Shown here: piece after piece, positions 36,481 through 53,460 of the stretch
Position numbering within the stretch: position 1 is the stretch's first letter
Layout of the letters: each line of letters starts with the position of its first letter
Assembly (NCBI GenBank): GCA_965206595.1
Contig: OZ242214.1
Coordinates: forward strand, 2,688,001 to 2,752,000
Source of the DNA: Candidatus Latescibacterota bacterium
GTDB lineage: Bacteria > Latescibacterota > UBA2968 > UBA8231
DNA: 64,000 nt
Reading direction: 5' to 3'
Position numbers and translations under genes: made by a program
The notes under the pieces: model-generated
Database searches by the model: none
What the model saw: only the letters and a program-made list of their open reading frames with translations
What the model was told of the DNA's origin: nothing

Positions 36481-36522
36481 GACTGGGCAATGGTTTATGT
36501 TATCAAGTACTTCGACGAGGGC

Positions 36523-36798
36523 CTACGTCCTCTCCGTAAGCCTGCCGGACAGGTATTTATGGATTACGCTCGACAACAGCGTCTGATACGGGATGCCCTC
36601 CTCCCGGGCTCTCGCATGGGCGAGATTGAAGTCGCGTTCGGTTACCCGCAGGTTGACCCGTCGAGTCTTGTTGAAGGTGTTTCGGGCAGCTTGACGTGCT
36701 GTCTCCATCTCAGCTTCAGCACCACCGCCGCGGCGCAGCTCGCCTCGCTCGAACTGCTCCAGGATCTCCTGCTCTTCGGTGTTCAGTTGGCCGCTCAA
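36523..36798 (-). CDS. Antitoxin, CopG/BrnA-like
   Basis: KTRRVNLRV...AREEGIPYQTLLSSVIHKY; overlaps the toxin stop. Confidence 0.85.
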   Translation of the reverse strand: MSGQLNTEEQEILEQFERGELRRGGGAEAEMETARQAARNTFNKTRRVNLRVTERDFNLAHARAREEGIPYQTLLSSVIHKYLSGRLTERT

Positions 36799-37097
36799 GA
36801 TGATCGCCTCCTCTGATAGTCGCGCGTCGCCTTCCGGCTGGGGATGATCGTTTTGAGGAACCTCGTGCCATCAGCGCCAATCACGAACGGCACGAGGTGG
36901 AGGTACCGTTCGATGTCCACGACGTAGATCATCTGTCCTGGATACCGCTCCTGATCGGGGTGTTCCAACGCGTTCACGAGACCACCACGCTCGATTGCAG
37001 AGACGACGCGCTCGAATGAGACTCCCCGCTGCTCAGCGAGTTGTCGGTTCTTCTCCAGGTTCCAATCGAAGCCGGCAGTCACGTTTCCGATCTTCAT
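36795..37097 (-). CDS. BrnT-like toxin (start uncertain, 37082 or 37097)
   Basis: FDWNLEKN, RGVSFE, KTIIPSRKAT. Confidence 0.85.
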   Translation of the reverse strand: MKIGNVTAGFDWNLEKNRQLAEQRGVSFERVVSAIERGGLVNALEHPDQERYPGQMIYVVDIERYLHLVPFVIGADGTRFLKTIIPSRKATRDYQRRRSS

Positions 37098-37303
37098 CCA
37101 TTGTGTGCATTTTGTCAACAATCTTGGGCCCCCGATGCCCCAATCCCAACCGGTCATCCCCGAGGTGATTCACATTATGCATTATCATTCAGCCGGAACA
37201 CCGGCCGGTCATCGACCGGAATTGAACTCCGCCCGGAACTATCCGGGCTCAAGACAGGGGATCGCGCCATCGTCAACCCCATGGCCGGTAGAGGAGACGT
37301 TCC

Positions 37304-38104
37304 ATGTCAGATGAGAGCGGAGCGAAATCCGCGGAGACCGTTCAACAACAGGTCAACGTTTATGCTCCGACGTGTCTCGATATCTGGCTGAACGAGCCCA
37401 GGAACGCCCCCGAAAGCAGGGCGCCCGCCAACCTCCTGCGCCTGTGGTTTCCCGAGTCGATCAACGCCTATGACTCCAGTGACAATCCGCTTTGGGAGTA
37501 CACGTTCGAAACGCGGAGGGCTTCGTGGCGCTACGTGAACGAGTCCATCAGCGACATGAAGAGCGGGCGGGCGATCCGAAAAGCTCTCGAAAGCGTCGAT
37601 ACCGTCGAGGGACTTGCCCTTGTCGCCTGCAAAGCCCGGTGGCGGGAAACCGATATCGACCTCACCCTGAGGATCACCAATGCCGGTCCGATAGCATGGT
37701 CGCGCCTGGAAACCAGCATCTGCCTCCAGCGCCCGGCGGCACCGGACTACCTGGACGAAGAGGATACCCGGACGTATCTGGTCAGCCGAGGGGTTCGTCG
37801 CCAGTGCCGAGCTCGCGTTCCCCCCGCGCCGCAGGGAGCCGGGCGCCGATTGGTGGCTCCGGCCCTTTTCGTGGTTTCAAAAGACGAGCGCTATGTGCTC
37901 GGGTATGCCTGGCAGCAGGCGCGGCGGCTTTTTCTCAACCGGGTCGGATGCGTCAGATGCCTTCATTCCGACCCCGAATTCGGGCATTCCGAGCCTCAGC
38001 AGCAGGACCAGCGACAGGGTATCGTATTCGTGAATGAGGGGACGCTCGAAGATGCGTACCGGCGCTACTGCGCGTGGAACGACAGGAACGACCCGCCGAC
38101 ATAA
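37304..38104 (+). CDS. Hypothetical protein (possibly degenerate in the middle)
   Basis: GAGGAG RBS, 266-aa ORF, CLHSDP motif; low-complexity stretch at RRQCRARVPP. Confidence 0.55.
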   Translation: MSDESGAKSAETVQQQVNVYAPTCLDIWLNEPRNAPESRAPANLLRLWFPESINAYDSSDNPLWEYTFETRRASWRYVNESISDMKSGRAIRKALESVDTVEGLALVACKARWRETDIDLTLRITNAGPIAWSRLETSICLQRPAAPDYLDEEDTRTYLVSRGVRRQCRARVPPAPQGAGRRLVAPALFVVSKDERYVLGYAWQQARRLFLNRVGCVRCLHSDPEFGHSEPQQQDQRQGIVFVNEGTLEDAYRRYCAWNDRNDPPT

Positions 38105-38121
38105 GAGTGGAGGAACAAGCT

Positions 38122-39546
38122 ATGGCAGACGAACGGCTGGCGTACGAACCGGCGACGGAGTTGCTCGAGCTGATCGCGACGAAACAGGTCTCTCCCGTGG
38201 AGCTGGCGGAAATGTTTTTCGACCGTATCGCCCGCCTCGACCCGCAGATCGATTCCTTCCTGCTGCTGACTCGGGACCTGGCCTTGGAGCAGGCGCAAGC
38301 GGCGGAGGACGCCGTGATGCGGGGCGACAAGCTCGGCGCCCTGCACGGCCTGCCCCTGCCCATCAAGGACACGCAGATGACCGCGGGCGTGCGGACGACC
38401 TTGGGGTCCGTCGTGCACGAGGACCGGGTACCCGAGCGCAACGCCGCCGTCGTCGAGCGTGTCCTGAACGCCGGGGCGGTGATGCTCGGCAAGACCAACG
38501 TGTCGGAGTTCGGCATGGTGGGCGCGTGCGAAAACTCCCTGGGGGTGCTGGGACGCAACCCGTGGGATACGGACCGGACGCCCGGAGGGTCGAGCGGCGG
38601 AGCCGCGGCGGCGGTGGCGGCGCACCTGTGCCCGGTGGCAACCGGAAGCGACGGCGGTGGATCGCTGCGGATACCCGCCAACTTCTGCGGCATCTACGCC
38701 ATCAAGCCGACGCAGGGCCGAGTATCCGGTTACACCGGACTCGGCGGGCCTCCGCTGCCGAACATCTTTTCACAGCCCGGCCCGTTGGCGCGGACGGTTC
38801 GCGACGCCGCGCTGCTGCTCCAGGTCATGGCGGGCTTCGACCGCCGCGACCATGCTTCCATCCGGCAGACTCCGCCCGACTTCATGGCGGCGACGGAGCG
38901 GGATATCGACGGCCTGCGCATCGGTTGGAGCGCCGATTTCGGCTTCGCCCCGGTCTTTCCCGAGGTCGTCGACGTCACCTGCAAGGCCGCGATGGTCTTC
39001 GAGGAGCTGGGCTGCACGGTCGAGGAAGTGAACATGGTGCTCCCCGAGCCGTACGACTCGTTCGGTCCCATCCAGGCCGCGGGTTCGTACAACGGCCTTG
39101 CGCAGTACCTCGAAGAGTACGGCGACCGGATGACGGAGTTCGCCCGCTTCTACATCGAGATGGGGTCCCGGGTCACGGCCGGTGACTACATGCGCGCCGA
39201 GGGGCGCATTGCCGAGTTGAAGGCTGCGTTCGACGACGCGTTCGAGACGTGCGATCTCATCATGTCGCCCGTGTCCTGCTTCCCCGCCTTCCCGAACGAG
39301 ACCTTCCCGGGCAGCATCACCGGGAGTTCGTCCTATCCCGTGCAGTACTGGAACGGGACGTTGACGATGCACGCCAATGCCACCGGCCACCCGGCCGCGT
39401 CCGTACCCGCGGGGTTCTCACCGGAGGGCCTGCCTGTCGGCCTTCAGATTATCGGGCGGAAGTGTGACGAAGAGACGGTGCTCGCCGCATCCGCGGCGTT
39501 CGAGCGCGCCCGTCCGTGGAGCGGGCGCAGGCCGCCCGTGTCCTGA
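38122..39546 (+). CDS. Amidase signature family protein
   Basis: IKD, GKTN, GGSSGG, GSDGGGSLRIPA. Confidence 0.92.
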   Translation: MADERLAYEPATELLELIATKQVSPVELAEMFFDRIARLDPQIDSFLLLTRDLALEQAQAAEDAVMRGDKLGALHGLPLPIKDTQMTAGVRTTLGSVVHEDRVPERNAAVVERVLNAGAVMLGKTNVSEFGMVGACENSLGVLGRNPWDTDRTPGGSSGGAAAAVAAHLCPVATGSDGGGSLRIPANFCGIYAIKPTQGRVSGYTGLGGPPLPNIFSQPGPLARTVRDAALLLQVMAGFDRRDHASIRQTPPDFMAATERDIDGLRIGWSADFGFAPVFPEVVDVTCKAAMVFEELGCTVEEVNMVLPEPYDSFGPIQAAGSYNGLAQYLEEYGDRMTEFARFYIEMGSRVTAGDYMRAEGRIAELKAAFDDAFETCDLIMSPVSCFPAFPNETFPGSITGSSSYPVQYWNGTLTMHANATGHPAASVPAGFSPEGLPVGLQIIGRKCDEETVLAASAAFERARPWSGRRPPVS

Positions 39547-39598
39547 GGCGTCGATTCTCGGCCAGGATACTACCCCTTACCCTGCGAGCTGCTGACCT

Positions 39599-39669
39599 TC
39601 ACCCCGCGGCCGCCTGCTCGTAGGCGAGGCCGAACACCGTATCCGCCATCCAGCGTTTGAAGCCGGGGT
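39599..39669 (-). repeat. Leftover copy of hsdR 3' end (matches 41066-41136)
   Basis: 67/71 nt identical including the stop codon; all four differences are synonymous. Confidence 0.92.
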
Positions 39670-39693
39670 AGCGATTTCCATTGGTTGGCAGTT

Positions 39694-39999
39694 TTACCAT
39701 TGCGCTCGTACCGCGGCTTGGTACGCCGTGTCGTGAGGTCCGACCGCTATTGCCTTTCCCATGCCGCTTTCCAACACCATGAAGACGAAGCGAAAACTTC
39801 GGCTCAGACGAACAGAGTACAGGCTTTTTCCGATTCGCAGTCGCTCCAGGTTTCTACCGGGAGCCAATTCGCCAGCGCATAGTTCGTCGATAACCCGCTC
39901 CAACTCATCCTTCATCCTTTGATCCAGACGATTGACCGTCCTGGCGAACTTCCGACTCGGCGTTTCGAAGCCGGCAATTCGCACCAGTCGCCCGGACAT
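39694..39999 (-). CDS. RelE/ParE-like toxin
   Basis: SRKFAR, LERLR, YSVRLSRSFRFVF, AVGPHD. Confidence 0.7.
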   Translation of the reverse strand: MSGRLVRIAGFETPSRKFARTVNRLDQRMKDELERVIDELCAGELAPGRNLERLRIGKSLYSVRLSRSFRFVFMVLESGMGKAIAVGPHDTAYQAAVRAQW

Positions 40000-40002
40000 G
40001 GA

Positions 40003-40578
40003 CTAAGGATTTTCCAGAGACGCCATAAATCCTGCTCCGCTAGTGCATGTCCCCCCTGGGCTCGAAGCGAGTGCCCCGTCGTGGATCATTATGGTCCAGC
40101 GAAGCTCTTGGAACGACGCCACGAGATCTTCGAACAGCTTGTCGAGACGTTCCAATTCTTCGAAGACCTCGGCTCCAAATGCGTCCCGCCCCCCCTTCCT
40201 CTGCAATGCCTCCCGGATCTCTCGCAGTCCTTCTCTTTCCTTGCGGAAGTATTCCTCGCTTTGCTCCAGCGCTGGTACGGCTATGTCGTCCGGGTCCATC
40301 TCAAGGCCTGCAGGGAATTCTTCCGCCGCTCTTTGGAGGCGCCCCTGAAAGACGGTACAGATATCCACAATGGCATCGTGGCGTTGACGAAAACTCTCGG
40401 TCAGTAACTTCATTGCCCCCTGAAACTTGACCCTGTTCCGGTTCGCGAGCAGGTCTGCAAGCCATTCCCCGGTCAGCACCTCCGACTGTTCCAAAGGCTG
40501 GGCACACCAAGTCAACGTCCCGGCGACGTTGCGGACCGTCTCCCCGCTGAATTCAGCTGTTTTTTCTTGAGTGACCAT
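40003..40578 (-). CDS. Hypothetical helical protein, putative antitoxin
   Basis: Ends 3 nt before the RelE-like gene; acidic and helical; GAGG RBS. Confidence 0.55.
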   Translation of the reverse strand: MVTQEKTAEFSGETVRNVAGTLTWCAQPLEQSEVLTGEWLADLLANRNRVKFQGAMKLLTESFRQRHDAIVDICTVFQGRLQRAAEEFPAGLEMDPDDIAVPALEQSEEYFRKEREGLREIREALQRKGGRDAFGAEVFEELERLDKLFEDLVASFQELRWTIMIHDGALASSPGGTCTSGAGFMASLENP

Positions 40579-41014
40579 GCTCAACCTCGCTTTGAGATGA
40601 CTGGGGCATCAGAGAAACCAAGATACTGCTTTCCGAAAAAATGGCACCGCCTATGCCCTTCCGGTCGAAGACAGGGGCATTGGTAGATTCAGCCCCCAGT
40701 GGAGGTCCTATGTCCTCCCCGTCAGCCTGCCGGACCGCTTCGAAGAGGACCGTTGGCTTAGGGTATTTACAAATTCCCGTCTCCGCGAGCGACTGATCGA
40801 TCTCCTCCCGGTGATCGAAATAGTAAGCCAACGCGGCATATACATCCGCCAACGTTACGTCGTAGTCGCTGGCAATCTCGTCGGCGGTTTTGCCCATGCG
40901 CTCGTGCCAGATGACGATATTCTCCACGGTGATCCGATGGCCGGCAATGCGAGGTTTTCCGCCTGATATGCCGGGGGTGATCTCGATATGTTGATCCAAG
41001 CTTTCCCTTGTCAT
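40553..41014 (-). CDS. DUF433 antitoxin-like protein, C-terminus probably frameshifted; partner absent
   Basis: ITPGISGGKPRIAGHRITV, ADVYAALAYY. Confidence 0.75.
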   Translation of the reverse strand: MTRESLDQHIEITPGISGGKPRIAGHRITVENIVIWHERMGKTADEIASDYDVTLADVYAALAYYFDHREEIDQSLAETGICKYPKPTVLFEAVRQADGEDIGPPLGAESTNAPVFDRKGIGGAIFSESSILVSLMPQSSQSEVEHGHSRKNS

Positions 41015-41065
41015 CACTAGATTTTCCAGTCGGGGAATCTTAAAGCCCTTTCTCATCACTGACAC

Positions 41066-44000
41066 TCAACCCGCGGCCGCCTGCTCGTAAGCGAGGCCGA
41101 ACACCGTATCCGCCATCCAGCGCTTGAATCCGGGGTCGTCCATGAATCTCTTGAATAGCTGGGCGTCGTCCTTCATCACGGAATTCATAACCCGGACCAG
41201 CACCTTGTCGCCCTCGATACGAGTGTTCTCGCGATCGGAGTTCTGCCGGGCATTGCGGAAGGCGGTGTCCGCGGCCACCCGGGTGGGAATGGTCTCGGTG
41301 ATGAGCTGTCCTACCCGGTCGGCGTCGTCCCAGTCGGTCGCCCAGTGCTCGTTGAAGGCTCTGAGAATGTTCGACAGCCGGTCCAGCTCCGGCTCGGTTT
41401 TGCTGCCTCCGCCGGCGGTCGGCACCGGGTCGACCTCACCGTCCTCGTCCGGCAGCAGGATCTTCTGCATCGCCTGCTTCTCGACCCGGTAACTGTCGAG
41501 GTCGATGGCGTCGAGGATGCCCTTCGACAGGTCCTCTTCCTCGGGGGCCGGCAGCTTCGGGATCAGGAGGTTCAGGAAGATCGAGCGCTTCTCCCACCCG
41601 GGGTCGTTGTAGGGAAGCACGGACGACAGAAAGGCGTAGGTGCGCGTGAACCCCTTGGCGTTCCCCTTGAACCGCACCTGTCCGTCCTCGTCCAGGTCGC
41701 TCCTGTAGACGGCCACGCAGGCGTCGAGGACCGGGTCGAGCTGGTCGCGCTCGGCCCCTCCGAGGTAGCGCCGCACCAAATCGTCGACCTGCTCCTCGGA
41801 ATAGACCTGGGCGCCGTCGAGGTCCGCCTGCAGGTCGTGCAGCTTGTCGGGGTCGGTCTCGTCGGCCAGGATGGTGGCGCGGTAGTAGTCGGCGAACGCC
41901 TCACTCATGGTGTCGGCGTCGTTGAAGAAATCGAGCACGAACACGTCGTGCTTCCTGGGGTGCGCCCGGTTGAGGCGGGACAGGGTCTGCACCGCCTTGA
42001 TGCCGGACAGGGTCTTGTCGACGTACATCGTGTGCAGCAGCGGCTCGTCGTACCCGGTCTGGAACTTGTCGGCGCAGACCAGGAAGCGGTAGGGATCCTC
42101 CTGGAACTGCGCGGCGATTCTCCCGGACGGAAAGCCGTTGAGCGACGCCTCGCTGACCTTCTCCCCGCCGAACTCGTGCTCACCGGAGAAGGCGACGAGG
42201 GCCCGGTAGCGGCTCTTGCGCTCCTGCAGGTAGTCGCGGATCGCGTGGTAGTACTGGATCGCCCGCTCGATGCCGTTGGTGACCACCATCGCCCGCGCGG
42301 CGCCGCCGATCTTGTTCTGCGCCAGCACCTGGTCGTGGAAGTGGTCGACCATGATCTCGGCCTTGAGCCCGATCGCGTGGTCGCTCCCCTCGACGAAGCG
42401 GCGCAGCTTCTTCTGCGCCTTCCTGACGTCGAACTCCGGGTCCTCTTCCACGGTCTTGGCGAGCTTGTAGTAGCTGTTCACCGGCAGGTAGTGGGAGAGC
42501 ACGTCGAGGATGAACCCCTCCTGGATCGCCTGCTTCATGGTGTAGCTGTGGAAGGCGTGGTGCCTGATTGTGCCGTCGGCCTGCGGGTCCTGGGCGCCGA
42601 AGATCTCCAGGGTCTTGTTCTTGGGCGTGGCGGTGAAGGCGAAGTAGCTGGCGTTGGGCAGCAGCTTGCGCGACTCCATCAGGCGGTTGATGCGGTCCTC
42701 GAAGGTTTCCCCCTCCTCCTCTTCCCCTGCCTCGGAGAGCGCCCGCGCCATGGCCGCGCTGGTTTGGCCGCCCTGGCTGGAGTGGGCCTCGTCGATGATG
42801 ATGGCGAAGCTGCGCCCGCGCTGCTCGTTGCCGATCTCGTCGAGGATGAACGGGAACTTCTGGATCGTCGAGATGATGATCTTCTTGCCGCTCTCGATGA
42901 AGCGGCGCAGGTCGCCGGAGCGGTCGGCGTGCCCCACCGTCGCCGACACCTGGGAATACTGCCTGATCGTGTCGCTGATCTGCCGGTCGAGAAGCACCCG
43001 GTCGGTGACGACGATGATCGAGTCGAAGACCGGGGCGCCGTCCTTCGCCAGTCCGATCAGCTGGTGGGCAAGCCAGGCAATGGAGTTGCTCTTGCCGCTG
43101 CCGGCCGAGTGCTGGATCAGGTAACGACCGCCCGCGCCGCGGTCCCCTGCGTCGGCCAGCAGGCGGCGCACCACGTCGAGCTGATGGTAGCGCGGCCAGA
43201 CCTGGGTCCGCTTCCTCCTGCCCGTCTTCTCGTCCTTCGACTCCACCACCTGGGCGTAGTTCTCCAGGATGTTGGTCAGGCTCTCCCGGCTCAGCACCTC
43301 CCGCCACAGGTAGCCGGCCTTGATGCCGCTGGCGTTGGGCGGGTTGCCGGCGCCGTCGTTCCAGCCGCGGTTGAAGGGCAGGAACCAGGAGGCCTTGCCG
43401 CTGAGGTGGGTGCAGAACTGGACCTCGCTCTCGTCCACCGCGAAGTGGGCGACGCAGCGGCCCAGCTCGAACAGCTTCTCGCGCGGGTTGCGGTCGCGCT
43501 GATACTGCTGGACGGCGTCGTCGACCGTCTGCTTGGTGAGGCTGTTCTTCAGCTCGAAGGTGAAGACCGGCAGGCCGTTGACGAACAGCCCGATGTCGAG
43601 CGCCCGCTGGGTTTCGTCGCGGCTGTAGCGAAGCTGGCGGGTGACGGTGAAGCGGTTCTGCCGGAAGCGCTCCTGCGCCTCCGGGTTGTCGGCCGAGGGA
43701 GTGCCGTAGAACAGGTCGAGGTCGTGGGCCCCGTGCCGGATGCCGTGGCGCAGCACGTCGATGGTGCCGCGCTTGCTGATCTCACCCTGGAGCCGGGCCA
43801 GGAACCGGCGGCGAGTGGGGTTGGCCTCGGACAAGCCGAGTGACTCCGATGCCTCGGGCTGGGTGGCGCGCAGGAAGGCGGAAAGCTGAGCCAGGTCGAC
43901 GCAGTACTCGCGGTCGTAGTCGTGGAAGTTGCCGCCGGCCCAACCGACTCCGCCGTAGCTGGCAGGGGGCTCGCCCGCGGTGGGACCCGGGGGCGGGTCG

Positions 44001-44077
44001 CAGGGATGGCCGGCCAGCGCGCTGCAGATGAGGCGTTCGAGGCCGCGTTCGGAGGTGTCGGTGGTCCTAACGGTCAT
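41066..44077 (-). CDS. hsdR: Type I restriction endonuclease subunit R
   Basis: DIGLFVNGLPVFTFELKN, HSAGSGKS, DEAHSSQ, FTATPK, KFQTGYDEP, QTLSRLNR; GGAGGAGG RBS. Confidence 0.96.
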   Translation of the reverse strand: MTVRTTDTSERGLERLICSALAGHPCDPPPGPTAGEPPASYGGVGWAGGNFHDYDREYCVDLAQLSAFLRATQPEASESLGLSEANPTRRRFLARLQGEISKRGTIDVLRHGIRHGAHDLDLFYGTPSADNPEAQERFRQNRFTVTRQLRYSRDETQRALDIGLFVNGLPVFTFELKNSLTKQTVDDAVQQYQRDRNPREKLFELGRCVAHFAVDESEVQFCTHLSGKASWFLPFNRGWNDGAGNPPNASGIKAGYLWREVLSRESLTNILENYAQVVESKDEKTGRRKRTQVWPRYHQLDVVRRLLADAGDRGAGGRYLIQHSAGSGKSNSIAWLAHQLIGLAKDGAPVFDSIIVVTDRVLLDRQISDTIRQYSQVSATVGHADRSGDLRRFIESGKKIIISTIQKFPFILDEIGNEQRGRSFAIIIDEAHSSQGGQTSAAMARALSEAGEEEEGETFEDRINRLMESRKLLPNASYFAFTATPKNKTLEIFGAQDPQADGTIRHHAFHSYTMKQAIQEGFILDVLSHYLPVNSYYKLAKTVEEDPEFDVRKAQKKLRRFVEGSDHAIGLKAEIMVDHFHDQVLAQNKIGGAARAMVVTNGIERAIQYYHAIRDYLQERKSRYRALVAFSGEHEFGGEKVSEASLNGFPSGRIAAQFQEDPYRFLVCADKFQTGYDEPLLHTMYVDKTLSGIKAVQTLSRLNRAHPRKHDVFVLDFFNDADTMSEAFADYYRATILADETDPDKLHDLQADLDGAQVYSEEQVDDLVRRYLGGAERDQLDPVLDACVAVYRSDLDEDGQVRFKGNAKGFTRTYAFLSSVLPYNDPGWEKRSIFLNLLIPKLPAPEEEDLSKGILDAIDLDSYRVEKQAMQKILLPDEDGEVDPVPTAGGGSKTEPELDRLSNILRAFNEHWATDWDDADRVGQLITETIPTRVAADTAFRNARQNSDRENTRIEGDKVLVRVMNSVMKDDAQLFKRFMDDPGFKRWMADTVFGLAYEQAAAG

Positions 44078-44168
44078 ACCTGCCTCCTCCGACCAGACCA
44101 TTCAATCACGTGTAAGTCCGTCGTAGTCCTGCCGGTTGGACCAGTCCCTTTTAGAGTGCTGGGACTTT

Positions 44169-45257
44169 CTACATTGCAAAGCAGAAGTCGTGCTCCTGGA
44201 ACTGTGACACCTTCGCGCCGTGAAACGAGTTCGCCTGCGTTTTGTCGACTTCGGAAGTGACCCCATCGTCGACAAGCTGTACCTCGCGGCCAAGACCTCC
44301 CGTCAAGGAACGCAGCAATCCCTCTCTCAACTCGGGTTTATTCAATCGGCGCCCTCCGATCCGAATGACCATCCTCGCCCGTCCTGCCAATAGAGGTCCC
44401 AGTCCCGCCATAGACGCCTGGATGAATGTCCAGTAGTTGTCCTTGTTGCGGTGTCGATCGTCTCCCCGCCCGCGCAGCACCAACGGCTCCCCGTCGAGAA
44501 ACCACAGCCGCAGCCACTGATCCTCGCGGTAGTTGGTGGTGTCGAGGTACGGCGGCGATGTAATCACGTCGGTAACTCGACCTGTAAGGTCCGGGAACTT
44601 GCAGGCGGCCAGACGAGCGTCGGTCTGAATCACCTTCGCGGATCCCTCCGGGGGAGGGGTCCGGAACCGGTATTCGAGCATCCGTTCGAGGATCTCGAAG
44701 ACATCCCGCGGCGGCGGGGTATTTCCGAATCGCCTCCACCATCGAATCGAATAATCCGGCTTCGTGCTGATAGTGCGGGGCATGCGGTTGCTGAAGTAAT
44801 TGGGGGAGCGGTGGGACTCACCATGCAGCGCACCGAGGCACAGCGCCGCGATGAACCGGTCGTCCTTGCGGTTGCGCCAATCCAGCACCGATCGCAGGTA
44901 ACGCACTTGCAGCAGTGTGTCCCGGTGAAAGCAAAGGTCGAAGAACTCTCCCAAGCTGCCCTGCCACCCCAAGTCATCCGGCTCGTAGCATCCCTGCCTC
45001 AACTCGTTGAGTCGCGTCCTGACTTTCGAGAATCCAGGCGGGTTGCTCTTGGCTCCCGAGACGCAGACCGCCACCGGGTTCAGATCGCAGCCGGCCGCTG
45101 CCCGCCCCTGGAGCAGCGCTTGAAAAACAGTCGTTCCCCGCCCGCAGTACGGATCGAAGACAATCCCGTTGTACCGACTCGCCGCAAGATGCTTCTCGAC
45201 GAACCTCTCCGGGAACATCGCGAAGTAGGGACAGATCGAGTGGAACCGATGTCTCAT
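44169..45257 (-). CDS. DNA methyltransferase (SPPY type, probably N4-cytosine)
   Basis: PYFAMFP, VFDPYCGRGTT, DLNPVA, VITSPPY; ATGA overlap with upstream gene. Confidence 0.88.
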   Translation of the reverse strand: MRHRFHSICPYFAMFPERFVEKHLAASRYNGIVFDPYCGRGTTVFQALLQGRAAAGCDLNPVAVCVSGAKSNPPGFSKVRTRLNELRQGCYEPDDLGWQGSLGEFFDLCFHRDTLLQVRYLRSVLDWRNRKDDRFIAALCLGALHGESHRSPNYFSNRMPRTISTKPDYSIRWWRRFGNTPPPRDVFEILERMLEYRFRTPPPEGSAKVIQTDARLAACKFPDLTGRVTDVITSPPYLDTTNYREDQWLRLWFLDGEPLVLRGRGDDRHRNKDNYWTFIQASMAGLGPLLAGRARMVIRIGGRRLNKPELREGLLRSLTGGLGREVQLVDDGVTSEVDKTQANSFHGAKVSQFQEHDFCFAM

Positions 45258-46252
45258 GCGGCCGCTGCACTCCCCCGGTTGCGGTAGTCTGTGACCCATT
45301 GCGCGACTTCCTCCAGCTGATCGTACCCCTCAATCCCAACACCGGCCTCCACGAGCCGAGCGGCTTCTGCCACACGACGGGGAACACGAAGCCGGTGCAG
45401 CACGTTCCCCATCACGCGAACGTCGTCGACGAACTGATCGTCGGCCGTGGCGAACGGGACAATCATGTAGGCGATGAAATCGGTCACCGGCGGCGTCCCG
45501 AACCACCGGCCCTTGAACGCGTTCAGATGACCCTTGAGCGACTTTTCCCTCGCATTACGGCCAGTGGCGACCTGGGCGGCGGCGAAAGGAAACCCCGGTA
45601 GCCCATCAGGGTGCGGGCGGGCAGCGAAAACATCGATCTGATCGTCTTTGGGCTGCCGCGGAGCTCCGATCTGCGGCTCGACCCTTCCGTCGCCGAGCTT
45701 TACCCAAATCTGTTTCAGCTTGTTGAGAAAACCCGATCTGTCCGGTCGTGGAAAACCGAACGACCACGCTACGCCCTGAATCTCTGCGGCCAAAGCAGCG
45801 GTCGCGAAATATTGAAAGTACTCCCGCAATTTCCCCACCTCTGCACAATCGGGATGAAGACCCGAACCATCGAGCATCGGCGTGAAGGCCCGCAGGTTCG
45901 AAAGGACAAGGCTCAGGATGTACGCTGCCTGCCCGAACGATTCATCGTCCATCTCGTACCACAACAGGTTTCCGTCAGAATCAAGCCTGAAGGGATAAGC
46001 CGAGTCCAACGCGTCCTGTCGCGTCTCGATCCTGTTCACCGCGCTTGAGACAATCTCTTCCTCTCCCTCCTGCATTTCCCCTTGCAGATCGCCATGATCC
46101 TCCGCCGCCCCGAGTGTCGCAGCGTTGGCGAGTTCAGAAGTCAGGACCGTGGAGTCATCTGCAAAGAATGCGGTTAACTCCAGAAAATCGGCGGCGAGAT
46201 CGACATCGATCGACGGTCCGGAAACCGCGTCTATTGGTAGATAAAGAGGCAT
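45254..46252 (-). CDS. Hypothetical protein, putative PD-(D/E)xK-type nuclease
   Basis: KDDQIDVFAAR...AAAQVATGRN resembles a D..D..QxxxG restriction-endonuclease variant; translationally coupled on both sides. Confidence 0.55.
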   Translation of the reverse strand: MPLYLPIDAVSGPSIDVDLAADFLELTAFFADDSTVLTSELANAATLGAAEDHGDLQGEMQEGEEEIVSSAVNRIETRQDALDSAYPFRLDSDGNLLWYEMDDESFGQAAYILSLVLSNLRAFTPMLDGSGLHPDCAEVGKLREYFQYFATAALAAEIQGVAWSFGFPRPDRSGFLNKLKQIWVKLGDGRVEPQIGAPRQPKDDQIDVFAARPHPDGLPGFPFAAAQVATGRNAREKSLKGHLNAFKGRWFGTPPVTDFIAYMIVPFATADDQFVDDVRVMGNVLHRLRVPRRVAEAARLVEAGVGIEGYDQLEEVAQWVTDYRNRGSAAAA

Positions 46253-47379
46253 CACTCCCCCGCGCTGGCGTCACGGTACTTCCGGGACATGCTATGATAC
46301 AGGCTATCCGCCGTTTCCTTTACATCCTCGGCGATGTCGAGCAGGGACCTGTCCATTCCGTCGTAAGCCCGCAGTGAACCTGTTGCTTCACGGACCGCAT
46401 CCCGCGCACGCAGCAGCGACGCAGTAAACCGTTTGTCCACGGGCTCCGTGCTGGCGTGTGCCTGATCGAGATTACCCCTTTGCTCCAGGACATGTCGCCC
46501 CTCCGCGTGGGCGAGCACCTCCCCCAATCGCTTGATGTCCGGGTTCTGCGTAGTCACCACCGGCCGCGCGTCGTCCGACTTCGATCCATAGATCCAGACG
46601 AGCACCTTTCGAAGCTCATCCAGTTTCTCCCGGGGAACCTGATCCGGCTTCGGGTCGTGTCGCGACCAAGCCGGTTCGAGGCCCAGATACTCCATGTACT
46701 GAGAACGCGAAAGCGCGGTATACAGATGGGAGAAATTGAACTTGCTGGTGTGGCGATCTTCGACCTCGAACAGCCTCTCTTCTTTTGCCTGCTCCAGCAC
46801 GTAGATTGCCGACACCATCCGCTTGATCGTATCGTGCCGGTCGCCGATGGCAGTCGCGATCTGCTCGAGGTCCAACCCTTGAGATCGCCCCGACCGGTAC
46901 CATTCCGCTGCGAAACGTGCCTTGGAGTACGCGTCCCACTTCGCAGGTCCGTTGATGTGTTTATAGCCGATGAAAGCTCGGGCATGCTCCCGGCTTTCGA
47001 CGAGGTAGACCGACACTTGATCCAGGGTACTGCGCACCGCATCGTCGATCTCGGGCACCGCTATACGGGTATCTTCCGAGGACGCGATCCTGCCAACCAA
47101 GGCCGGTTCCACCAAAAGACGAAGCGTGGCGAGCCTCCGGTTTCCCTCAAGGACGATCAGCGTGTCACCTTCAGAGGCGCGCATGACGACGAGCGGCTCG
47201 ATGTCGAGGTACCCGTTGGCGGATATCGACTGAAGAAGCTCGTCGAGCTCCGCTGAGCGGTAGAGCCGCGCAATGATCGACTCGTCGGATGCATCCTCCG
47301 CCTGGCCTAGCAGCCGCGGGTTTCTACGATCCAGTCGAAGCCTCTCTACCGGCACCTTGGTGGTCGTTTCAAGTTCCAT
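46252..47379 (-). CDS. ParB/Srx N-terminal domain protein
   Basis: LRLDRRNPRL, SISANGY..EPLVV, VLEGNRRLA, HINGPAKW. Confidence 0.82.
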   Translation of the reverse strand: MELETTTKVPVERLRLDRRNPRLLGQAEDASDESIIARLYRSAELDELLQSISANGYLDIEPLVVMRASEGDTLIVLEGNRRLATLRLLVEPALVGRIASSEDTRIAVPEIDDAVRSTLDQVSVYLVESREHARAFIGYKHINGPAKWDAYSKARFAAEWYRSGRSQGLDLEQIATAIGDRHDTIKRMVSAIYVLEQAKEERLFEVEDRHTSKFNFSHLYTALSRSQYMEYLGLEPAWSRHDPKPDQVPREKLDELRKVLVWIYGSKSDDARPVVTTQNPDIKRLGEVLAHAEGRHVLEQRGNLDQAHASTEPVDKRFTASLLRARDAVREATGSLRAYDGMDRSLLDIAEDVKETADSLYHSMSRKYRDASAGE

Positions 47380-47622
47380 TGGCAACCGTCCTTCTCCATT
47401 TTCTGGCTATGACCGACACCAAGTTTCCACCCCACTACCTGACAGAGAGCATTCCCCAGTTCAACCGTCCCAGGGACCGACCATCTTGCACCGATACTGC
47501 GTTGGATGCAGTTCCGGCAAATATGCCCCATAAGCGGGGGGGCCGTATCTCTTCTACAATGACCAGGTACTCAGTCTGTGACATCTCCACCATTCGTGTC
47601 AGTTCTATTTGGCACGCCTGCC

Positions 47623-47653
47623 CGAGGCCAAGTTCGGAGGTGTCGGTGGGCAC
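47623..47653 (-). repeat. hsdR 5' remnant A
   Basis: 47623-47649 matches 44038-44064 at 25/27; reads GTG-PTDTSELGL, 8 nt after the PIN stop. Confidence 0.8.
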
Positions 47654-47661
47654 TGTGAAGC

Positions 47662-48075
47662 CTACCGCTCGGTGAACGGGTTTATAACCCGGAGGCCATC
47701 GTAGTCCCGTTCCGAATTGAGGTCTTCTGAGTAGACCGCATCGCAGCCCAGGGCGCGCGCCGCCGCAAGAATGGCACCGTCCCAAAAAGACAGCCCGAAG
47801 CGTCGGCTGATGGCGGTGGCGGCACGGAACAGACTGAGGGTGATATCCTGGACCGGAAAGTGACCGATGCCCTGGATGAATTCCAGCGCGTGTTCTTGAG
47901 TGATCGCTCCGAGGCGGGTGGAGCGCGTTGCCTGGTGATAGAACTCCTGGAGCACCTGGACGGACAACGCAAGGTCCTCCGCTTCCAGCAGCCGCTGGGC
48001 CAAACGCTGCTTGTCGGCTTCTTCAGGAGCGGGGCTGGCCGCGTATATCAGGACGTTCGTATCGACAAAGCGCAC
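47662..48075 (-). CDS. PIN-domain toxin (VapC-like)
   Basis: FVDTNVLIY, QVLQEF, SFWDGAI, YSEDL, NPF. Confidence 0.92.
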   Translation of the reverse strand: MRFVDTNVLIYAASPAPEEADKQRLAQRLLEAEDLALSVQVLQEFYHQATRSTRLGAITQEHALEFIQGIGHFPVQDITLSLFRAATAISRRFGLSFWDGAILAAARALGCDAVYSEDLNSERDYDGLRVINPFTER

Positions 48076-48080
48076 GGCAC

Positions 48081-48419
48081 TTACCCGCGCTGGCGGTCTT
48101 CGTCTTCGGCGGCCGCTGCCTGAGCTTCGGCTCTGGCTCTGGCTCGGTCGTACAGTTCTTCGCGAGGCAGGTTGTCAGCGGCCCTGAATCCGGGGGAAGT
48201 AGTGCGGATTTTCTCAATGACCTCGCGCAACATCCTGCGGCGGCGTTCGACTTCCGTCTCCACCTCCAGCCTCTTGTCCGCTGTTCGGCCGGCACCGTCC
48301 TCAACCAGGCTCTTCAGGTAGTCCCGCACGAGGGCCGATACCGAGGTGTCCAATTCCGCCGCCCGGATGCGGGCGAGCCGGTGGGTCTCTTCGTCGACGG
48401 ATACGGTGATGTTCTTCAT
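48081..48419 (-). CDS. RHH antitoxin (DUF6364/CopG-like)
   Basis: MKNITVSVDE...TSVSALVRDYL, C-terminal REELYDR. Confidence 0.85.
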   Translation of the reverse strand: MKNITVSVDEETHRLARIRAAELDTSVSALVRDYLKSLVEDGAGRTADKRLEVETEVERRRRMLREVIEKIRTTSPGFRAADNLPREELYDRARARAEAQAAAAEDEDRQRG

Positions 48420-48430
48420 GGTCACAGCCT

Positions 48431-48443
48431 CACAGTTTCTGTG
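48431..48443. promoter_or_regulatory. Candidate RHH operator
   Basis: CACAG-TTT-CTGTG palindrome just upstream of the antitoxin start. Confidence 0.5.
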
Positions 48444-48541
48444 TAGCACAACGTAGGTGCCCATAAAACGATGGGCAACACCTGCGGCGGCGAGGGTGCC
48501 TTCAGGGCTGGCGCTTTTTGGTGTTACGTTTCCTCCGCGTC

Positions 48542-48616
48542 CGGGTCGCAGGGATGGCTGGCCAGGGCAGGGCAGATGAGGCGTTACAGGCCGCGCTCGG
48601 AGGAATCGGTGGTCAT
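48542..48616 (-). pseudogene. hsdR 5' remnant B
   Basis: MTTDSSERGL*RLICPALASHPCDP vs hsdR TTDTSERGLERLICSALAGHPCDP, about 63/73 nt; its ATG overlaps the DUF1828 stop (ATGA). Confidence 0.9.
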
Positions 48617-49391
48617 GCCGCTTCGCTCAGGACCGCGGCGAATTCGTCCGGCCTTGACCAGCGCGAAACCATGGACAGAGGCTCGACCAGCCGATAATCC
48701 TCATCCGCCCAGACATCGGCGGTATCGTCAAACAACGAGACGAAGGTCAGGGCTTCCGGTCCCGCAGCGAGATGATTCAGATCGTGCCAGGCTGCCAGCA
48801 CGTGCTCGGAGACCCTGTGGGCTGCAGCGCGATTCCCAGTACTCAGCACCTGCACCAGGGAACTGCGCAGCTTGGTCCGAACGTGAAAATCGACCGTCCA
48901 GCCACGTCCCGACCTGCCGACCAGCTTTTCGCCGCGGTCGAAACCGAATTCACGCTCTTTCAAGAAATCGGCTACCTCGTCCGTAATGGACAAGCCGCCC
49001 GGGGTTCGGAAGGTGACCCATAAGTCGGACAACCCGCAGCGCCGCCTGCGCAACTCGGGTAACGACATGCGCCAACTCGTCACCGGGCCGGCATCGGGCC
49101 TGAAGCATTCCACGGTAGAACTCCGTGCCGTGTGTCAGGCACGCATCTTCGATAAACTGCTTCTGTTTCGGCGATCGGCGAAGCGCCGTCGACTGCATGC
49201 TAAGCCAGCCCGTGGTTTCCGCAAGATCGCTAACCGTCACCACGTCCCCCCGGACCTTGCAGAAAAGATCGATGTTGTCGCCGTCCGGAAAGAGGAATGG
49301 CGTGCGAATTCGCAGATATTCGCCCTGCGGAGCATATGAACGAGGCTCCGACCTTTCGCTGGATATCCTGGCACAAGTGACTGTGATTCAT
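48613..49391 (-). pseudogene. DUF1828/DUF1829-domain gene, frameshifted
   Basis: IRTPFLFPDGDNIDLF, VSDLAET and GRSG..WTVDF are spread over different frames. Confidence 0.75.
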
Positions 49392-49993
49392 CACCACAAC
49401 TCCTTCTGTGTCGCAGGCGGTTCTTCCAGTCGCCAAGGGTTTCCATGGTCAGACAGGATCCGCATGGCCTGATTTGGCATCGAGGTCGCATGGCCGATGG
49501 GCAATGCCTGTGGCCGGGGGGCGGCCATCCTGATCTGGCAGGGGCAAGTTTCGAACCTGTCCCTACGGTCGGACCCCGGAGGCGGTTGCACCGATGGCCG
49601 AATAGAGCCGTGAATGGACGCTCCAGCCCGTTCTCGCTGGTGTCGGTGGTCCGCGCTATATGCCTCGTCTCTCATCGGGATGGGAACTTCCCGCACTTCA
49701 CCGGGTTGGATTTCATCCAAAGCAATGCGGATGGCTTCCGTTCTCTGCGAGATGCGCGGCCAAGCGGTTTTCATCAAAACGACCACGGCCACCTGTCTGT
49801 TTGACATGTTCTGTTGATGTTGGATGCCTTGGTCGGTAGTGATCAAAACATCGAAGCCGACTTCTTCAGCACGGTCCAGCAAGTCTCCGTTGGACAAGCC
49901 GTCCCAACCGCGCTCCCTGGCCTCTTCGACGACATGGCCGAAAAGCCGGAGGCGCAACTGCCTGGGTGTCCCGTTATCGAACAGGATGCGCAT
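49391..49993 (-). CDS. DUF5615/PIN-like toxin; native stop near 49660 apparently lost, reads through remnant C
   Basis: MRILFDNGTP, NGDLL, LITTDQGI..QQN. Confidence 0.78.
   Translation of the reverse strand: MRILFDNGTPRQLRLRLFGHVVEEARERGWDGLSNGDLLDRAEEVGFDVLITTDQGIQHQQNMSNRQVAVVVLMKTAWPRISQRTEAIRIALDEIQPGEVREVPIPMRDEAYSADHRHQRERAGASIHGSIRPSVQPPPGSDRRDRFETCPCQIRMAAPRPQALPIGHATSMPNQAMRILSDHGNPWRLEEPPATQKELW
49560..49652 (-). pseudogene. hsdR 5' remnant C (most decayed)
   Basis: RTTDTSENGLERPFTALFGHRCNRLRGPTVG vs RTTDTSERGLERLICSALAGHPCDPPPGPTAG. Confidence 0.8.
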
Positions 49994-51154: not shown

Positions 51155-52301
51155 GTGTTGTGTCGCATTAATTCGTTCACAAAGTCCCTTGATCTTAGCG
51201 AGGATTGAATCTGCCGTGGCCGTCCATACGAAGGGGTGGGCCTTTTGGTTCCAGTGGTCTGTGAAGTGCTCAATGCGACGGATCAATTCCTTCACCTTCC
51301 TGAAGGAGCCTTAGTCGAATCGCCCGCCGCGTGAGGATGCCGAACCAGATCTCCACCTGGTTTAGCCAGCACGCATAGGTCGGGGTGAAATGGAGGTGGA
51401 AGCGGGGGTGTCGAGCCCGCCACTGCTTTACTTTGGCGTGTTTGTGGGTAGCGTAGTTATCGACCACCAGATGAAGGTCCAGATCCGCCGGCACCTGGGC
51501 CTCGATGTGGCGCAGAAACTGGAGAAATTCCTGATGCCGATGGCGGGGCTTGCACTGCGCTATGACCTGTCCGCTCTCGATGTTGAGCGCCGCAAACAGG
51601 GTGGTCGTGCCATGGCGTTTGTAGTCGTGGGTTACCCCTTCCACATAGCCCAGACCCAAAGGCAGCAACGGCTGGCTGCGCTCCAGGGCCTGGATCTGGC
51701 TCTTCTCGTCTACGCACAACACCAGGGCATGCTCGGGAGGATTCAGATACAGACCGACGATGTCGCGCACTTTCTCCACGAAGAACGGATCGGTGGACAG
51801 TTTGAAGGTCTTCTGCCGATGGGGCTGTAAGCCGAAGGTGCGCCAGATGCGATGCACCGTGTCCTTGGACATCCCCGAGGCGGCCGCCATGGAGCGCACC
51901 GTCCACTGGGTCTGGTCTTGTATACGACCGCCGCCACCTGCTCGTCATCAATGGAGCGGGGCGTCCCCGGACGGAGCTCGTCATACAGGCCCATGAGACC
52001 TTGCTCCACAAAGCGCTTGCGCCCCTTTCCAACGGTCGCCGGCGAGGTGGACAAGCAGCTGGCAATGGCTTGGTTGGGCCAACCGTCGGCGGCTAGCAGA
52101 ACAATCTCTGCACGACGGACCAGACCGTGGGGCTTGGAACGTGAGTTGGCTAGAGATTGCAATTGCTTTCGAGTCCGTTCACTCAATTCAAACGGAACCA
52201 ACGGGCGTCCAGATCGCATCGGGTCTCTCCTTTGGAAAAGGTCCTTGGAGAAGGATACCCACGAAGCGGATATTATGCTAGTTATTTCTGAGACTATACA
52301 C
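51155..52301 (-). mobile_element. IS630-family element with frameshifted transposase
   Basis: CTAG at both ends (TA 51153-54 and 52302-03); homologous to the 1255..2343 transposase but split over several frames. Confidence 0.9.
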
Positions 52302-52374
52302 TAGCGTCCCCCAAACCACCCAGCCGCCACTGACCTTGTTCAAATTCAGTTCGACGGCAGAGCAGGTATTCCAG

Positions 52375-52662
52375 TCATCGCAGGGTCACCTCTTCCTCGG
52401 GGTCAAAGTTGCCGAAACTCGCATCCGGGTCAGCATGGATCGTGTCGTCCAAGTCGTCTTCCACAACCGGATCCACTTCCGGCAGTTCAGGCGCCCACTC
52501 ACGCACGTCGAGCTTACCGGTGACGACATCGGCGATCAGGCGGGTGCGGTATTCGCCGAGGAGTTCGATCTGGCGGTTAGCGCGGCTAGTGGCGGTGTTC
52601 AGCCTAGCGGTACTCGCTTCTATCTGTCGCACGATTAAGCCTTGTTCATAAACCGGTGCCAC
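52375..52662 (-). pseudogene. hsdS: Type I specificity subunit C-terminal fragment
   Basis: IELLGEYRTRLIADVVTGKLDVRE; 5' part replaced by ISL3. Confidence 0.85.
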
Positions 52663-52683
52663 CGCAATCCCTCTAGAACCGAT

Positions 52684-53460
52684 GGCTCGTCAGTAGAATT
52701 CGTGGGTGAATTGTGGCTCGGGTAAATCGCCAAGCTGATGGAACGAAGCGATTTGGAGTGCCTTGAAGGTGCGAAATCCGAATGCTTTTCTCACCGTCAG
52801 ATTCCATTTCAGGTTCAAACCCTCGACCATGCCGTTGTTGAACTGCTTCCGGGCCCTGAACCAATTGAGGATGAGCTCTTGATGCCGCCGCAGCATCCTG
52901 GCGATGTCTTTCATTGGTTCGATGTTGCTTCTCATCGTACGGAAACACCAGCGCTGGAGAAACTTCTCAGCCCAAGCCGGGTAGGTGTAGTCCCAGAAGC
53001 GCTGGAAGTCCTCCTTGAGCAGGTAGGCTCGGACCGTCCGCAGGTTCATCTTCAATAGCTCCGACAGCTTCAAGCCCTGGGAGTCGCTGAGGTTCTCCTT
53101 GCGCTTCAGGAAGCACCAGCGGCTCTTGCTCAGGACCGGATCCTGGCCCTGTTCTTTGAGTCTGCGGGCCTCTTCGGCACGGACTTTGTCGAGGCCCTTG
53201 CCAAAGTGCTGCATGATGTGAAAACGGTCGAGGATATGTACCGCGGTGGGCAGCCGCTTGCTGATCACGGTGAGGTAGGCTTTCCAGATATCAGAGCAGA
53301 TGACGGTAATCTGGTCGAGGAAACGGGTCGGCTCCTGCTCGCCGGCGGCTTCCTGCTTGCGCCGGTGCTCCTGCTCCAGTTCGGTAAAGCCGTCGTTCAA
53401 GGCCTTCTTCGTCCGCTTCTCGCCCATCCACAACAGGCGGCGGCGGTGGGGGTCGATCGG
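52684..53460 (-). mobile_element. ISL3-family remnant (3' half of transposase plus end)
   Basis: ICSDIWK, LDRFHI, NGMVEGLN, AFGFR; end GGCTCGTCAG. Confidence 0.88.

Follow-up and report, generated by a model that had tools for sequence, protein, structure and literature searches.

This analysis concerns an orphan 3' end of a type I restriction gene, hsdR, which lies downstream of the intact hsdR gene in a 64,000-nt stretch of DNA from a Candidatus Latescibacterota bacterium (contig OZ242214.1, positions 2,688,001 to 2,752,000). The whole stretch is called the window, its genome is designated G000, and coordinates are positions of the window unless another contig or locus is named. G001 is the sister species in the same genus and G002 is the third species; the genus is thus sampled by three genomes. 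The orphan end is called the stub, and p193 and p101 are cargo proteins of 193 and 101 amino acids (aa), respectively. Both hsdR and the cargo are on the minus strand. The features at the junction are as follows (ORF, open reading frame).

41066..44101, minus strand: intact type I restriction subunit gene hsdR, 1011 aa (HSDR_N, SWI2_SNF2/ResIII/DEAD and T1R_D3-like, Pfam)
41059..41136, minus strand: live copy of the repeat, with the last 23 hsdR codons, the stop codon and 7 nt past the stop (repeat finder, alignment)
40553..41014, minus strand: DUF433 gene with an atypical 63-aa C-terminal extension (Pfam DUF433, E = 2.7e-19)
40003..40584, minus strand: gene of p193, a protein of unknown family, putative antitoxin and upstream partner of p101 (class-wide co-occurrence)
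39694..39999, minus strand: gene of p101, a HigB/RelE/ParE-like putative toxin (alignment A2, 13 homologues)
39599..39700, minus strand: 33-aa ORF, about 10 HigA-like codons in frame with the 23-codon hsdR stub (ORF list, alignment A4)
39592..39669, minus strand: orphan hsdR 3'-end stub (sequence, repeat finder, alignment, BLAST)
39547..39598, no strand: ancestral spacer between the stop codons of hsdR and the amidase gene, now behind the stub (partly alignable by eye to the G001 spacer)
38074..39546, plus strand: amidase gene converging on hsdR, the fixed flank (Pfam Amidase, E = 3.4e-102)

The last 71 nt of hsdR (41066–41136) are repeated directly at 39599–39669. According to the repeat finder and the pairwise alignment, the two copies have four mismatches (67/71 identical) and a start-to-start spacing of 1467 nt. 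Since five of the seven bases behind the stop codon match as well, the repeat finder lengthens the pair to 78 nt (39592–39669 and 41059–41136; 72/78 identical, 92%). The pair is found with E = 5e-27 by BLAST within the window, and therefore the repeat is not a product of chance. No further copy of the 71-nt core is present anywhere in the G000 genome. The four differences between stub and live copy (GGC/GGA, AAA/AAG, GCC/GCT and GGG/GGT) are all located at third codon positions and are all silent, as a first reading of this DNA from its letters alone (the sequence-only reading) had described.

The two copies are continued by different sequences. The stub runs on into a spacer like that beside the amidase gene of G001, where BLAST homology picks up again at window position 39564; thus, the stub occupies the ancestral context. 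The amidase gene is orthologous in G001 (90%) and G002 (90%). Behind the stop codon of the live copy, seven bases resembling those behind the stub are followed by unrelated sequence leading into the DUF433 gene. The cargo between the 71-nt copies is 1,396 nt long and consists of the DUF433, p193 and p101 genes. Its GC content is 0.54–0.59 against 0.65–0.72 in the flanks, and its GC content at third codon positions (GC3) is 0.62–0.64 against 0.86–0.93.

Contigs of public sequencing runs were available from the Logan collection. The runs are from three studies (X2, X5 and X6 denote runs), and one run may be the sample of the assembly itself. One X2 contig passes from the amidase gene through the stub into the cargo (record 14, 39291–40259), and another passes from the cargo into hsdR beyond the repeat (record 15, 40233–41391). 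The run contigs across the two joints differ from the assembly by 0–4 letters, and the stub itself shows no differences. If the hsdR ends of two strains had been merged during assembly, the copies would be expected to differ only at sites where strains can differ, and this is what they do. However, the G000 genome is a single 7.05-Mb contig, and contigs from all three studies cross both joints. Such a merging, which the sequence-only reading had named as a possible refutation, is contradicted by these contigs. An assembly artefact is hardly conceivable and is effectively refuted; the structure is physically real.

The changes in the hsdR 3' end were polarised using the outgroup alleles of G001, G012, G020, G040 and G030. 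The derived states are GGA and GCT on the live side and AAA on the stub side, and GGG/GGT is ambiguous. The stub therefore holds the ancestral state at two of the three polarisable differences. It is also 1–2 nt closer than the live copy to all five other alleles compared, which is a very small sample. In the strain or strains represented by X2, X5 and X6, the same insert is present, with 2 differences over about 1,400 cargo positions and none in the stub. The live copy of these strains has G at 41090, which is the state of the stub, and silent variants at 41096 and 41111, giving three third-position differences within 22 nt. On such a nearly identical cargo background, the three variants look like a short recombination tract. 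Since the live copy varies among strains bearing the insert, the live end has still been exchanging or mutating after the insertion.

The sequence-only reading had taken four silent changes out of four as a sign of two alleles that were both functional at the event. The probability of this outcome is 0.003–0.005 if all the changes fell on a neutral stub. It is 0.02–0.03 for a neutral stub combined with a live copy under selection, and 0.05–0.27 if only one or two of the changes belong to the stub lineage. At least two changes arose in the live copy, and one of them, GCT, is still polymorphic among carriers of the insert. The statistical argument is weak because changes in the live lineage are silent anyway; the conclusion may still be right. 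We conclude that the differences, all of them silent, represent variation among functional hsdR alleles; part of this variation may predate the event, and at least one difference arose later in the live copy. The case is a caution for genome scans: when a dead and a live copy differ at silent sites only, this alone does not show that both were functional.

The joint between cargo and stub was located by comparison with relatives. In several of these, a 105–106 aa helix-turn-helix (HTH) gene of HigA-like type follows p101, its start overlapping the p101 stop, which gives the HigB–HigA gene order (HTH_19 match weak, E = 8e-5, under the curated cut-off). Among 11 loci with both p193 and p101, this gene is complete in 2, truncated in 3 and absent in 6. 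The window keeps approximately its first 10 codons, and hsdR homology follows right behind (nucleotide alignment A4). The truncation is observed directly. Homology to the modules of relatives stops at 39671–39676, and the joint is at 39669/39670. CCCGG is present in both partners, within ..CATCCCGG.. of the HTH gene and ..GACCCCGG.. at hsdR codon 989. As the HigA-like gene is cut right at the onset of hsdR homology, and as CCCGG is common to both partners, the distal joint is attributed to illegitimate recombination inside the gene. The resulting 33-aa ORF begins with an ATG that overlaps the p101 stop. This HigA'–'HsdR fusion is most likely a by-product. It is unlikely that it is expressed and active, translationally coupled to p101, serving either as a stop-gap antitoxin or as a decoy for the HsdR tail's partner.

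On the other side of the cargo, the end of the live hsdR gene differs from the rest of the gene. The comparison of hsdR between G000 and G001 gives a mosaic, observed directly, of blocks with about 0–1% and about 10% divergence; thus, allelic recombination in hsdR is common. The 3'-terminal block is contiguous with the cargo.

41066..41476, minus strand: putative imported tract, hsdR codons 876–1011 (divergence, derived states, GC3)

The G000–G001 divergence of codons 876–1011 is 7.1%, compared with 1.6–2.9% in the low-divergence blocks and 5.8–8.4% in other mosaic blocks. In this block, 16 derived states are assigned to G000 and 5 to G001, while the sums over seven other blocks are 21 and 29. 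Of 24 outgroup orthologues, which are not independent of each other, 23 are closer to G001 than to G000 in this block, and this is not so in the two preceding blocks. GC3 falls from 0.93–0.97 over codons 612–891 to 0.82–0.85 in codons 876–1011.

The explanation of the stub that we regard as moderately probable is a homologous crossover anchored in hsdR together with one illegitimate joint, that is, displacement of the type known as homology-facilitated illegitimate recombination (HFIR). We infer the donor, the position of the crossover and the order of events as follows. A piece of approximately 1.8 kb, coming from a related strain or species, would have replaced the region, and the stub would be the resident hsdR's own 3' end, left behind. 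The incoming piece would have comprised the last ~136 codons of another hsdR allele, a DUF433 remnant, p193–p101 and the start of the HigA-like gene. The homologous crossover would lie inside hsdR, near codon 876 or further upstream. The far end would have been joined illegitimately at CCCGG, between codon 9–10 of the incoming HigA-like gene and codon 989 of the resident hsdR. The resident gene would have lost approximately codons 876–988, and its last 23 codons would have stayed next to the old spacer and the amidase gene as a dead stub, with hsdR remaining intact. A single event would suffice to explain the foreign block together with the low-GC cargo, the truncation of the HTH gene and the stub, and the duplication would be only apparent because the donor also carried the end of the gene.

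The sequence-only reading had proposed the same outline, a donor hsdR allele entering with its cargo by a homologous anchor and an illegitimate joint. It has gained the microhomology joint, the foreign tract, the ancestral spacer and the fossil hsdR 5' ends described below; neither a donor nor an empty site was found for it. According to passages of PMC3240628, HFIR was defined by experiments with Streptococcus pneumoniae, Acinetobacter baylyi and Pseudomonas stutzeri, occurs at low frequency in conjugation of E. coli, and typically has joints with 3–10 bp of microhomology. The window resembles these cases in its homologous anchor (hsdR), in its illegitimate joint of 5 nt, in requiring no recombinase gene, and in the gain of about 1–2 kb of foreign DNA with loss of a resident stretch (approximately codons 876–988). 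The homology is one-sided: hsdR is homologous, and past the joint no homology connects the cargo with the resident flank. In contrast to the experimental cases, the event is inferred from a natural product and was not observed, and the product mimics a duplication. The locus is an ordinary recombination scar at a recombination-prone type I restriction locus, and the processes are already known. It would show base by base how a defence region gains cargo without a dedicated mobility enzyme while the restriction gene is kept intact. It would also be a natural, datable example of one-sided recombination, which is known mainly from laboratory transformation and toxin loci.

Several points weigh against this explanation. 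Of the four differences, one or more postdate the insertion, and the repeats could therefore have begun identical. The comparison between stub and live copy covers 71 nt only, and 4 versus 5 differences to G001 decides nothing. The asymmetry of codons 876–1011 could stem from an unrelated, earlier allelic exchange, as hsdR has other divergent blocks. The CCCGG microhomology is deduced from modules of relatives that are only 75–82% identical, not from the actual donor. The downstream hsdR flanks were examined for orthologues of 28 other species (full 1.5-kb flank in 24 of the 28), and only that of G001 has any of the cargo; a donor haplotype is not among them. The hsdR–amidase junction is not empty in any of the three genomes of the genus, G001 and G002 carrying other or decayed cargo. 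A metagenome scan with a 35-nt pattern from the hsdR end gave 0 matches, to a donor or to an empty site. The sequence-only reading had suggested looking for an hsdR allele with the donor arrangement, and neither the flanks of the 28 species nor the metagenome scan yielded one. A low-depth X2 contig joins 39663 to 41150 through 19 other letters (net 1467 nt). This contig has the look of a divergent hsdR allele with an end fitting the stub, and is a lead only.

An insertion in place with a long target duplication would give the same layout. The 1.4-kb cargo would have entered at the hsdR 3' end with duplication of 71–78 nt, and the copies would then have diverged, the live copy by silent mutation and allelic exchange, the stub by few neutral changes that were possibly slowed by gene conversion. 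Such insertions of restriction-modification genes are described in passages of Furuta, Abe and Kobayashi (2010; PMC2853133), some of the repeats overlapping the 3' end of a gene. The window agrees with three of their four criteria, having target repeats longer than 30 bp and an insert shorter than 20 kb with deviating, lower GC and without mobility genes. The polymorphism at 41090 among carriers of the insert and the two further silent variants found only in the live copy show that divergence of the live end after insertion is real. The four-out-of-four silent pattern has a probability of 0.02–0.03 under the proper null and of 0.05–0.27 after polarisation. Other p193 loci also lie between direct repeats, as described below.

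However, the definition asks for R and M genes in the insert, and the insert holds a toxin-antitoxin package of DUF433, p193 and p101 only. The repeats in the consulted passages of PMC2853133 are near-identical (44/46, 417/423), whereas those of the window are 94% identical, with 67/71 matches and two more mismatches in the seven post-stop bases. Neither of the live allele's two polarised derived states is present in the stub, though the whole 3' block of the live gene looks foreign. This foreign block would need a separate later exchange from a donor with the same cargo. At the nearest fossil 5' end, the copies are separated by a non-homologous stretch that fits different alleles, and no genome of the genus offers an empty site to which both repeats could be aligned as one target. 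We thus consider an insertion in place unlikely, though it deserves serious attention, and the comparison favours two alleles over a duplication made during insertion.

The age of the stub and the cargo of the sister species bear on a further alternative. At 4-fold degenerate sites of the amidase gene, G000 and G001 differ by 24.4% (66/270). A neutral 71-nt stub older than the split of the two species would be expected to show about 8–9 changes; the observed number is 2 or fewer (Poisson P ~0.014 with 8 expected). For comparison, the 5' fossil shared with G001 has 10/73 changes and a stop codon. The stub may be this fresh for one of three reasons: it may postdate the split, gene conversion may have renewed it, or it may be under constraint.

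In G001, the flanks are conserved (amidase region 90%; hsdR and upstream genes 95.5%), and 3.9 kb of different but related cargo lies between them, with no 71-nt stub. The order on the coding strand is hsdR, the C-terminal half of p193 beginning from the hsdR stop, DUF433, DUF5615, an 824-aa SMC/AAA ATPase gene and a 125-aa gene. The pieces common to G001 and the window are 90–92% identical. A possible 10-nt remnant of an old hsdR end beside the 125-aa gene is too short to use. G002 retains scraps in the same order: amidase, 79 nt of the p193 end and p101 start, 38 nt of internal hsdR and 50 nt of vapB (L108, G002:C3:2262663-2267125, positions 2977–3145). In G075, DUF433–DUF5615 directly follows hsdR; this order and that of G001, with a p193 fragment and DUF433 behind hsdR, are related arrangements but not the donor. 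The related cargo in G001 and G002, about 89–92% identical, fits a cargo family circulating in the genus and imported later from a congener.

The stub could also have arisen in two steps. An older displacement would have left a longer dead 3' fragment of hsdR behind a longer array with a complete HigA-like gene, DUF433–DUF5615 and other genes, and a later deletion between two CCCGG sites would have made the present joint. Longer arrays do exist in relatives; G094 has p193, p101, the HigA-like gene, DUF433 and then an ATPase gene, and the G001 cargo is at the same junction. Remnants of cargo are found at the junction in all three species of the genus, and truncated starts of the HigA-like gene are frequent (the 3 of 11 loci mentioned above). 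A fragment as old as the genus, however, should have collected the 8–9 changes calculated above, and the scheme requires more events than a single step. We regard it as improbable.

Orphan C-terminal fragments of hsdR are common across the class (G057, G053, G113, G102, G059, G030, G040, G071, G124 and G041, among others). A live hsdR with a stub just downstream was not found elsewhere in the class, where short diverged stubs are below the sensitivity of the search.

The junction was further examined for genes and sites of site-specific integration. The tyrosine recombinases gave 13 matches in the genome, none of them in the window and the nearest more than 700 kb away, and serine recombinases gave 0 matches in the genome. 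These counts agree with the sequence-only reading, which had noted no visible integrase. There is no recombinase or transposase in the insert, no insertion sequence (IS) at the joints, no tRNA in 30000–55000 and no Rfam match in 38000–45000. Genomic islands whose integration target is the 3' end of a tRNA or protein gene, which they restore, are integrase-dependent, such as those targeting trmE or dusA. The incoming DNA of such islands supplies a replacement end, the target gene remains intact, and the old end is a direct repeat.

The layout of the window, with direct repeats flanking the cargo and an intact target gene, is like that of these islands. It would be produced if an element without an integrase were mobilised in trans, using the hsdR 3' end as its attachment site and carrying the replacement end. 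Unlike the islands, the window has neither an integrase nor defined ends: no tyrosine recombinase lies within 700 kb, and the joint on the cargo side is inside a truncated gene. The cargo occurs in many genomes without the 71-nt repeat and without an adjoining hsdR, and no precise excision joint was found in the run contigs. The sequence-only reading had named an integrase with the 71-nt repeat as its attachment core as a possible refutation; none is in or near the element, and the core is at a single locus in the genome. Integration in trans is accordingly very improbable.

The hsdR-anchored displacement draws further context from the region upstream of the live gene, where three fossil hsdR 5' ends are found.

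47623..47649, minus strand: fossil no. 1, about 10 codons, still joined to the vapC end (27 nt, 92.6% identical to live 44038–44064)
48542..48614, minus strand: fossil no. 2, from the start codon to about codon 25, containing an in-frame TAA, upstream of vapB (73 nt, 86% identical to live 43994–44066)
49561..49656, minus strand: fossil no. 3, aa 11–43, the most decayed (tblastn 61% aa identity, E = 0.002)

The decay of the three fossils grows with distance from the live hsdR, and fossil no. 2 is also present in G001. Fossil no. 1 is collinear with the intact vapC–hsdR junction of G012 and G020 up to the break (alignment A5), and a donor-type or ancestral arrangement is therefore attested for the event of fossil no. 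1. Around this fossil, the two copies differ by a non-homologous stretch of 40–50 nt, which fits different alleles and not a duplication. The VapB-like ribbon-helix-helix and VapC PIN genes (47662–48464) are directly upstream of hsdR in G012, G020 and G040, and 3.5 kb of cargo intervenes in the window. A stretch of 12 aa immediately upstream of the live hsdR (E = 0.005), possibly a remnant of the vapC 3' end, is too short to use.

The cargo among the fossils (44169–47385 and 48613–49113) includes a type II methyltransferase-like gene (44169..45299; PADLOC MTase_II, E = 1.7e-26), a 333-aa ORF without a match, a PD-Lambda-5_A-like/ParB-like gene (46252..47385, E = 1.9e-22) and a PDC-M24B-like 166-aa ORF (E = 1.5e-48). 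These genes may be defence systems embedded in the restriction locus. A further short hsdR 5' fragment lies approximately 400 kb from the window (G000:C1:3148686-3148790, aa 13–47, 66%).

Stacked ends of this kind have a counterpart in effector arrays. According to passages of Kirchberger et al. (2017; PMC5361080), effector-immunity modules of type VI secretion systems (T6SS) undergo sequential displacement, and C-terminal displacement in Rhs and contact-dependent inhibition (CDI) proteins leaves orphan 3' ends and immunity genes. Displacement by HFIR was proposed for the T6SS/Rhs arrays in the same passages. In both cases there is a conserved anchor gene, incoming modules push older ends outward, and the fossils are stacked by age; in the window, these are one 3' and three 5' hsdR fossils. 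In the T6SS/Rhs arrays, however, the displaced piece is a different toxin domain and the immunity gene is kept for protection, whereas both hsdR ends encode the same 23 residues. The hsdR end would be only a handle, with the neighbouring toxin-antitoxin and defence cargo as the payload, and the window has fossils at the 5' end of the gene too.

That hsdR acts as a standing handle building a defence island at both ends is plausible when taken alone. The wider proposal, in which hsdR is a permanent recombination handle for integrase-free loading of cargo at both ends, leaving dated fossils of which the 33-aa ORF is possibly active, is tentative and in our view doubtful. If hsdR is such a handle, the history of the defence island could be read like strata, and if this is true of type I loci in general, stacked fossils would be a simple marker for the order in which defence cargo was acquired. 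We found no account of stacked hsdR end fossils in the literature.

The cargo itself was compared with 168 genomes of the phylum at the DNA level and, for p193, with 132 genomes of the class. Its description in the sequence-only reading, about 1.4 kb with DUF433, a putative antitoxin and a RelE-like toxin, agrees with the Pfam match of DUF433 and with weak HigB-like matches among the homologues of p101. The DNA comparison divides the cargo into three blocks, 41014–40737, 40735–40586 and 40593–39671 (p193–p101). The DUF433 gene is chimeric, being composed of the first block, which is widespread, and the second, which is confined to the genus and encodes the 63-aa tail. Judging from coordinates, the DUF433 block is located 2–12 kb upstream of the same hsdR orthologue in most relatives. 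The DUF433 orthologues of G001 and G075 have 102–107 aa and are followed by DUF5615; no DUF5615/PIN gene is downstream of the DUF433 gene in the window.

DUF433 (COG2442) with PIN was predicted to be a toxin-antitoxin system in passages of Makarova et al. (2009; PMC2701414). From the three-block makeup and the lost DUF5615/PIN partner, it follows that the cargo is itself a patchwork of toxin-antitoxin pieces typical of the type I loci of this hsdR family. It resembles type II DUF433–PIN and HigB–HigA modules in its predicted DUF433 antitoxin and RelE/HigB-like p101. It is unlike them in that the DUF433 gene has lost its partner and gained an unrelated tail, only 10 codons of the HigA-like gene are left, and the partner of p101 is the uncharacterised p193.

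Relatives of p193 are present in 33 of the 132 genomes. At 10 of 29 p193 loci, a full-length p101 gene lies within a few bases downstream; the others have p101 with an internal deletion (1), a p101 fragment (11) or no p101 (7). On this sequence evidence, p193–p101 is a conserved gene pair. p193 has no match to a Pfam family. A function suggested by a PDB profile search (designed helical repeats, chemoreceptor helices) and by Atlas scores below 0.9 was rejected as uninformative.

p101 of the window has no Pfam, NCBIfam or PADLOC match itself. Its homologues in alignment A2 show a weak match to HigB-like_toxin in 9 of 13 (best E = 0.0026) and to ParE_like in 7 of 13. PDB profile matches of p101 are weak (HigB-type 'killer protein' and YoeB, E = 0.006–0.02). 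From these similarities, p101 is probably a toxin of the RelE superfamily. In 39400–41300, a scan for promoters and terminators found no promoter-like site and one terminator-like site, which does not exceed the yield from shuffled sequence.

Other p193 modules lie between direct repeats of 31 nt (L050, 1467–1497/2338–2368), 138 nt (L051, 1262–1399/2088–2225) and 290 nt (L060, 754–1043/2368–2657), which correspond to the module leader, the 5' part of the HigA-like gene and copies of DUF433, respectively. As these repeats are made of neighbouring toxin-antitoxin pieces or of the module's own leader, they were not accepted as proof of a shared insertion mechanism. In L051 and L043, the p193 module is within a type I locus, adjoining hsdM.

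The live hsdR gene is one intact ORF that combines an N-terminal nuclease domain, motor domains of superfamily 2 (SF2) and a helical region at the C-terminus, the arrangement of an HsdR subunit. It matches PADLOC REase_I (E = 2.4e-44), and it matches TIGR00348 with E = 6.6e-58 but with 196.7 bits, under the trusted cut-off of 284.55 bits. The protein is 97% identical in aa sequence to its G001 orthologue. The closest Methylase_S and N6_Mtase matches (hsdS-like and hsdM-like) are about 35–45 kb upstream on the same strand, outside the window, at approximately G000:C1 2767000 and 2773700, and are candidate partners only. Between them and hsdR are transposase genes of the DDE_3, ISL3 and IS1595 types (window 51270–55007). 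Insertions seem to have stretched the restriction locus.

On the other side of the junction, beyond the amidase cluster, a second copy of the tail block of the DUF433 chimera is present at 36517–36550 (34 nt, 88%). The counterpart in G001 (L030, 2883–3106) is a larger, permuted remnant, in which the tail block is followed by a DUF433 5' piece. These remnants hint that the amidase cluster itself is within an older toxin-antitoxin array. A 120-aa ORF at 36795–37157 on the minus strand has a weak match to BrnT toxin (E = 3.9e-4), below the cut-off, and the 266-aa ORF beside it (37304..38104) is missing from G002.

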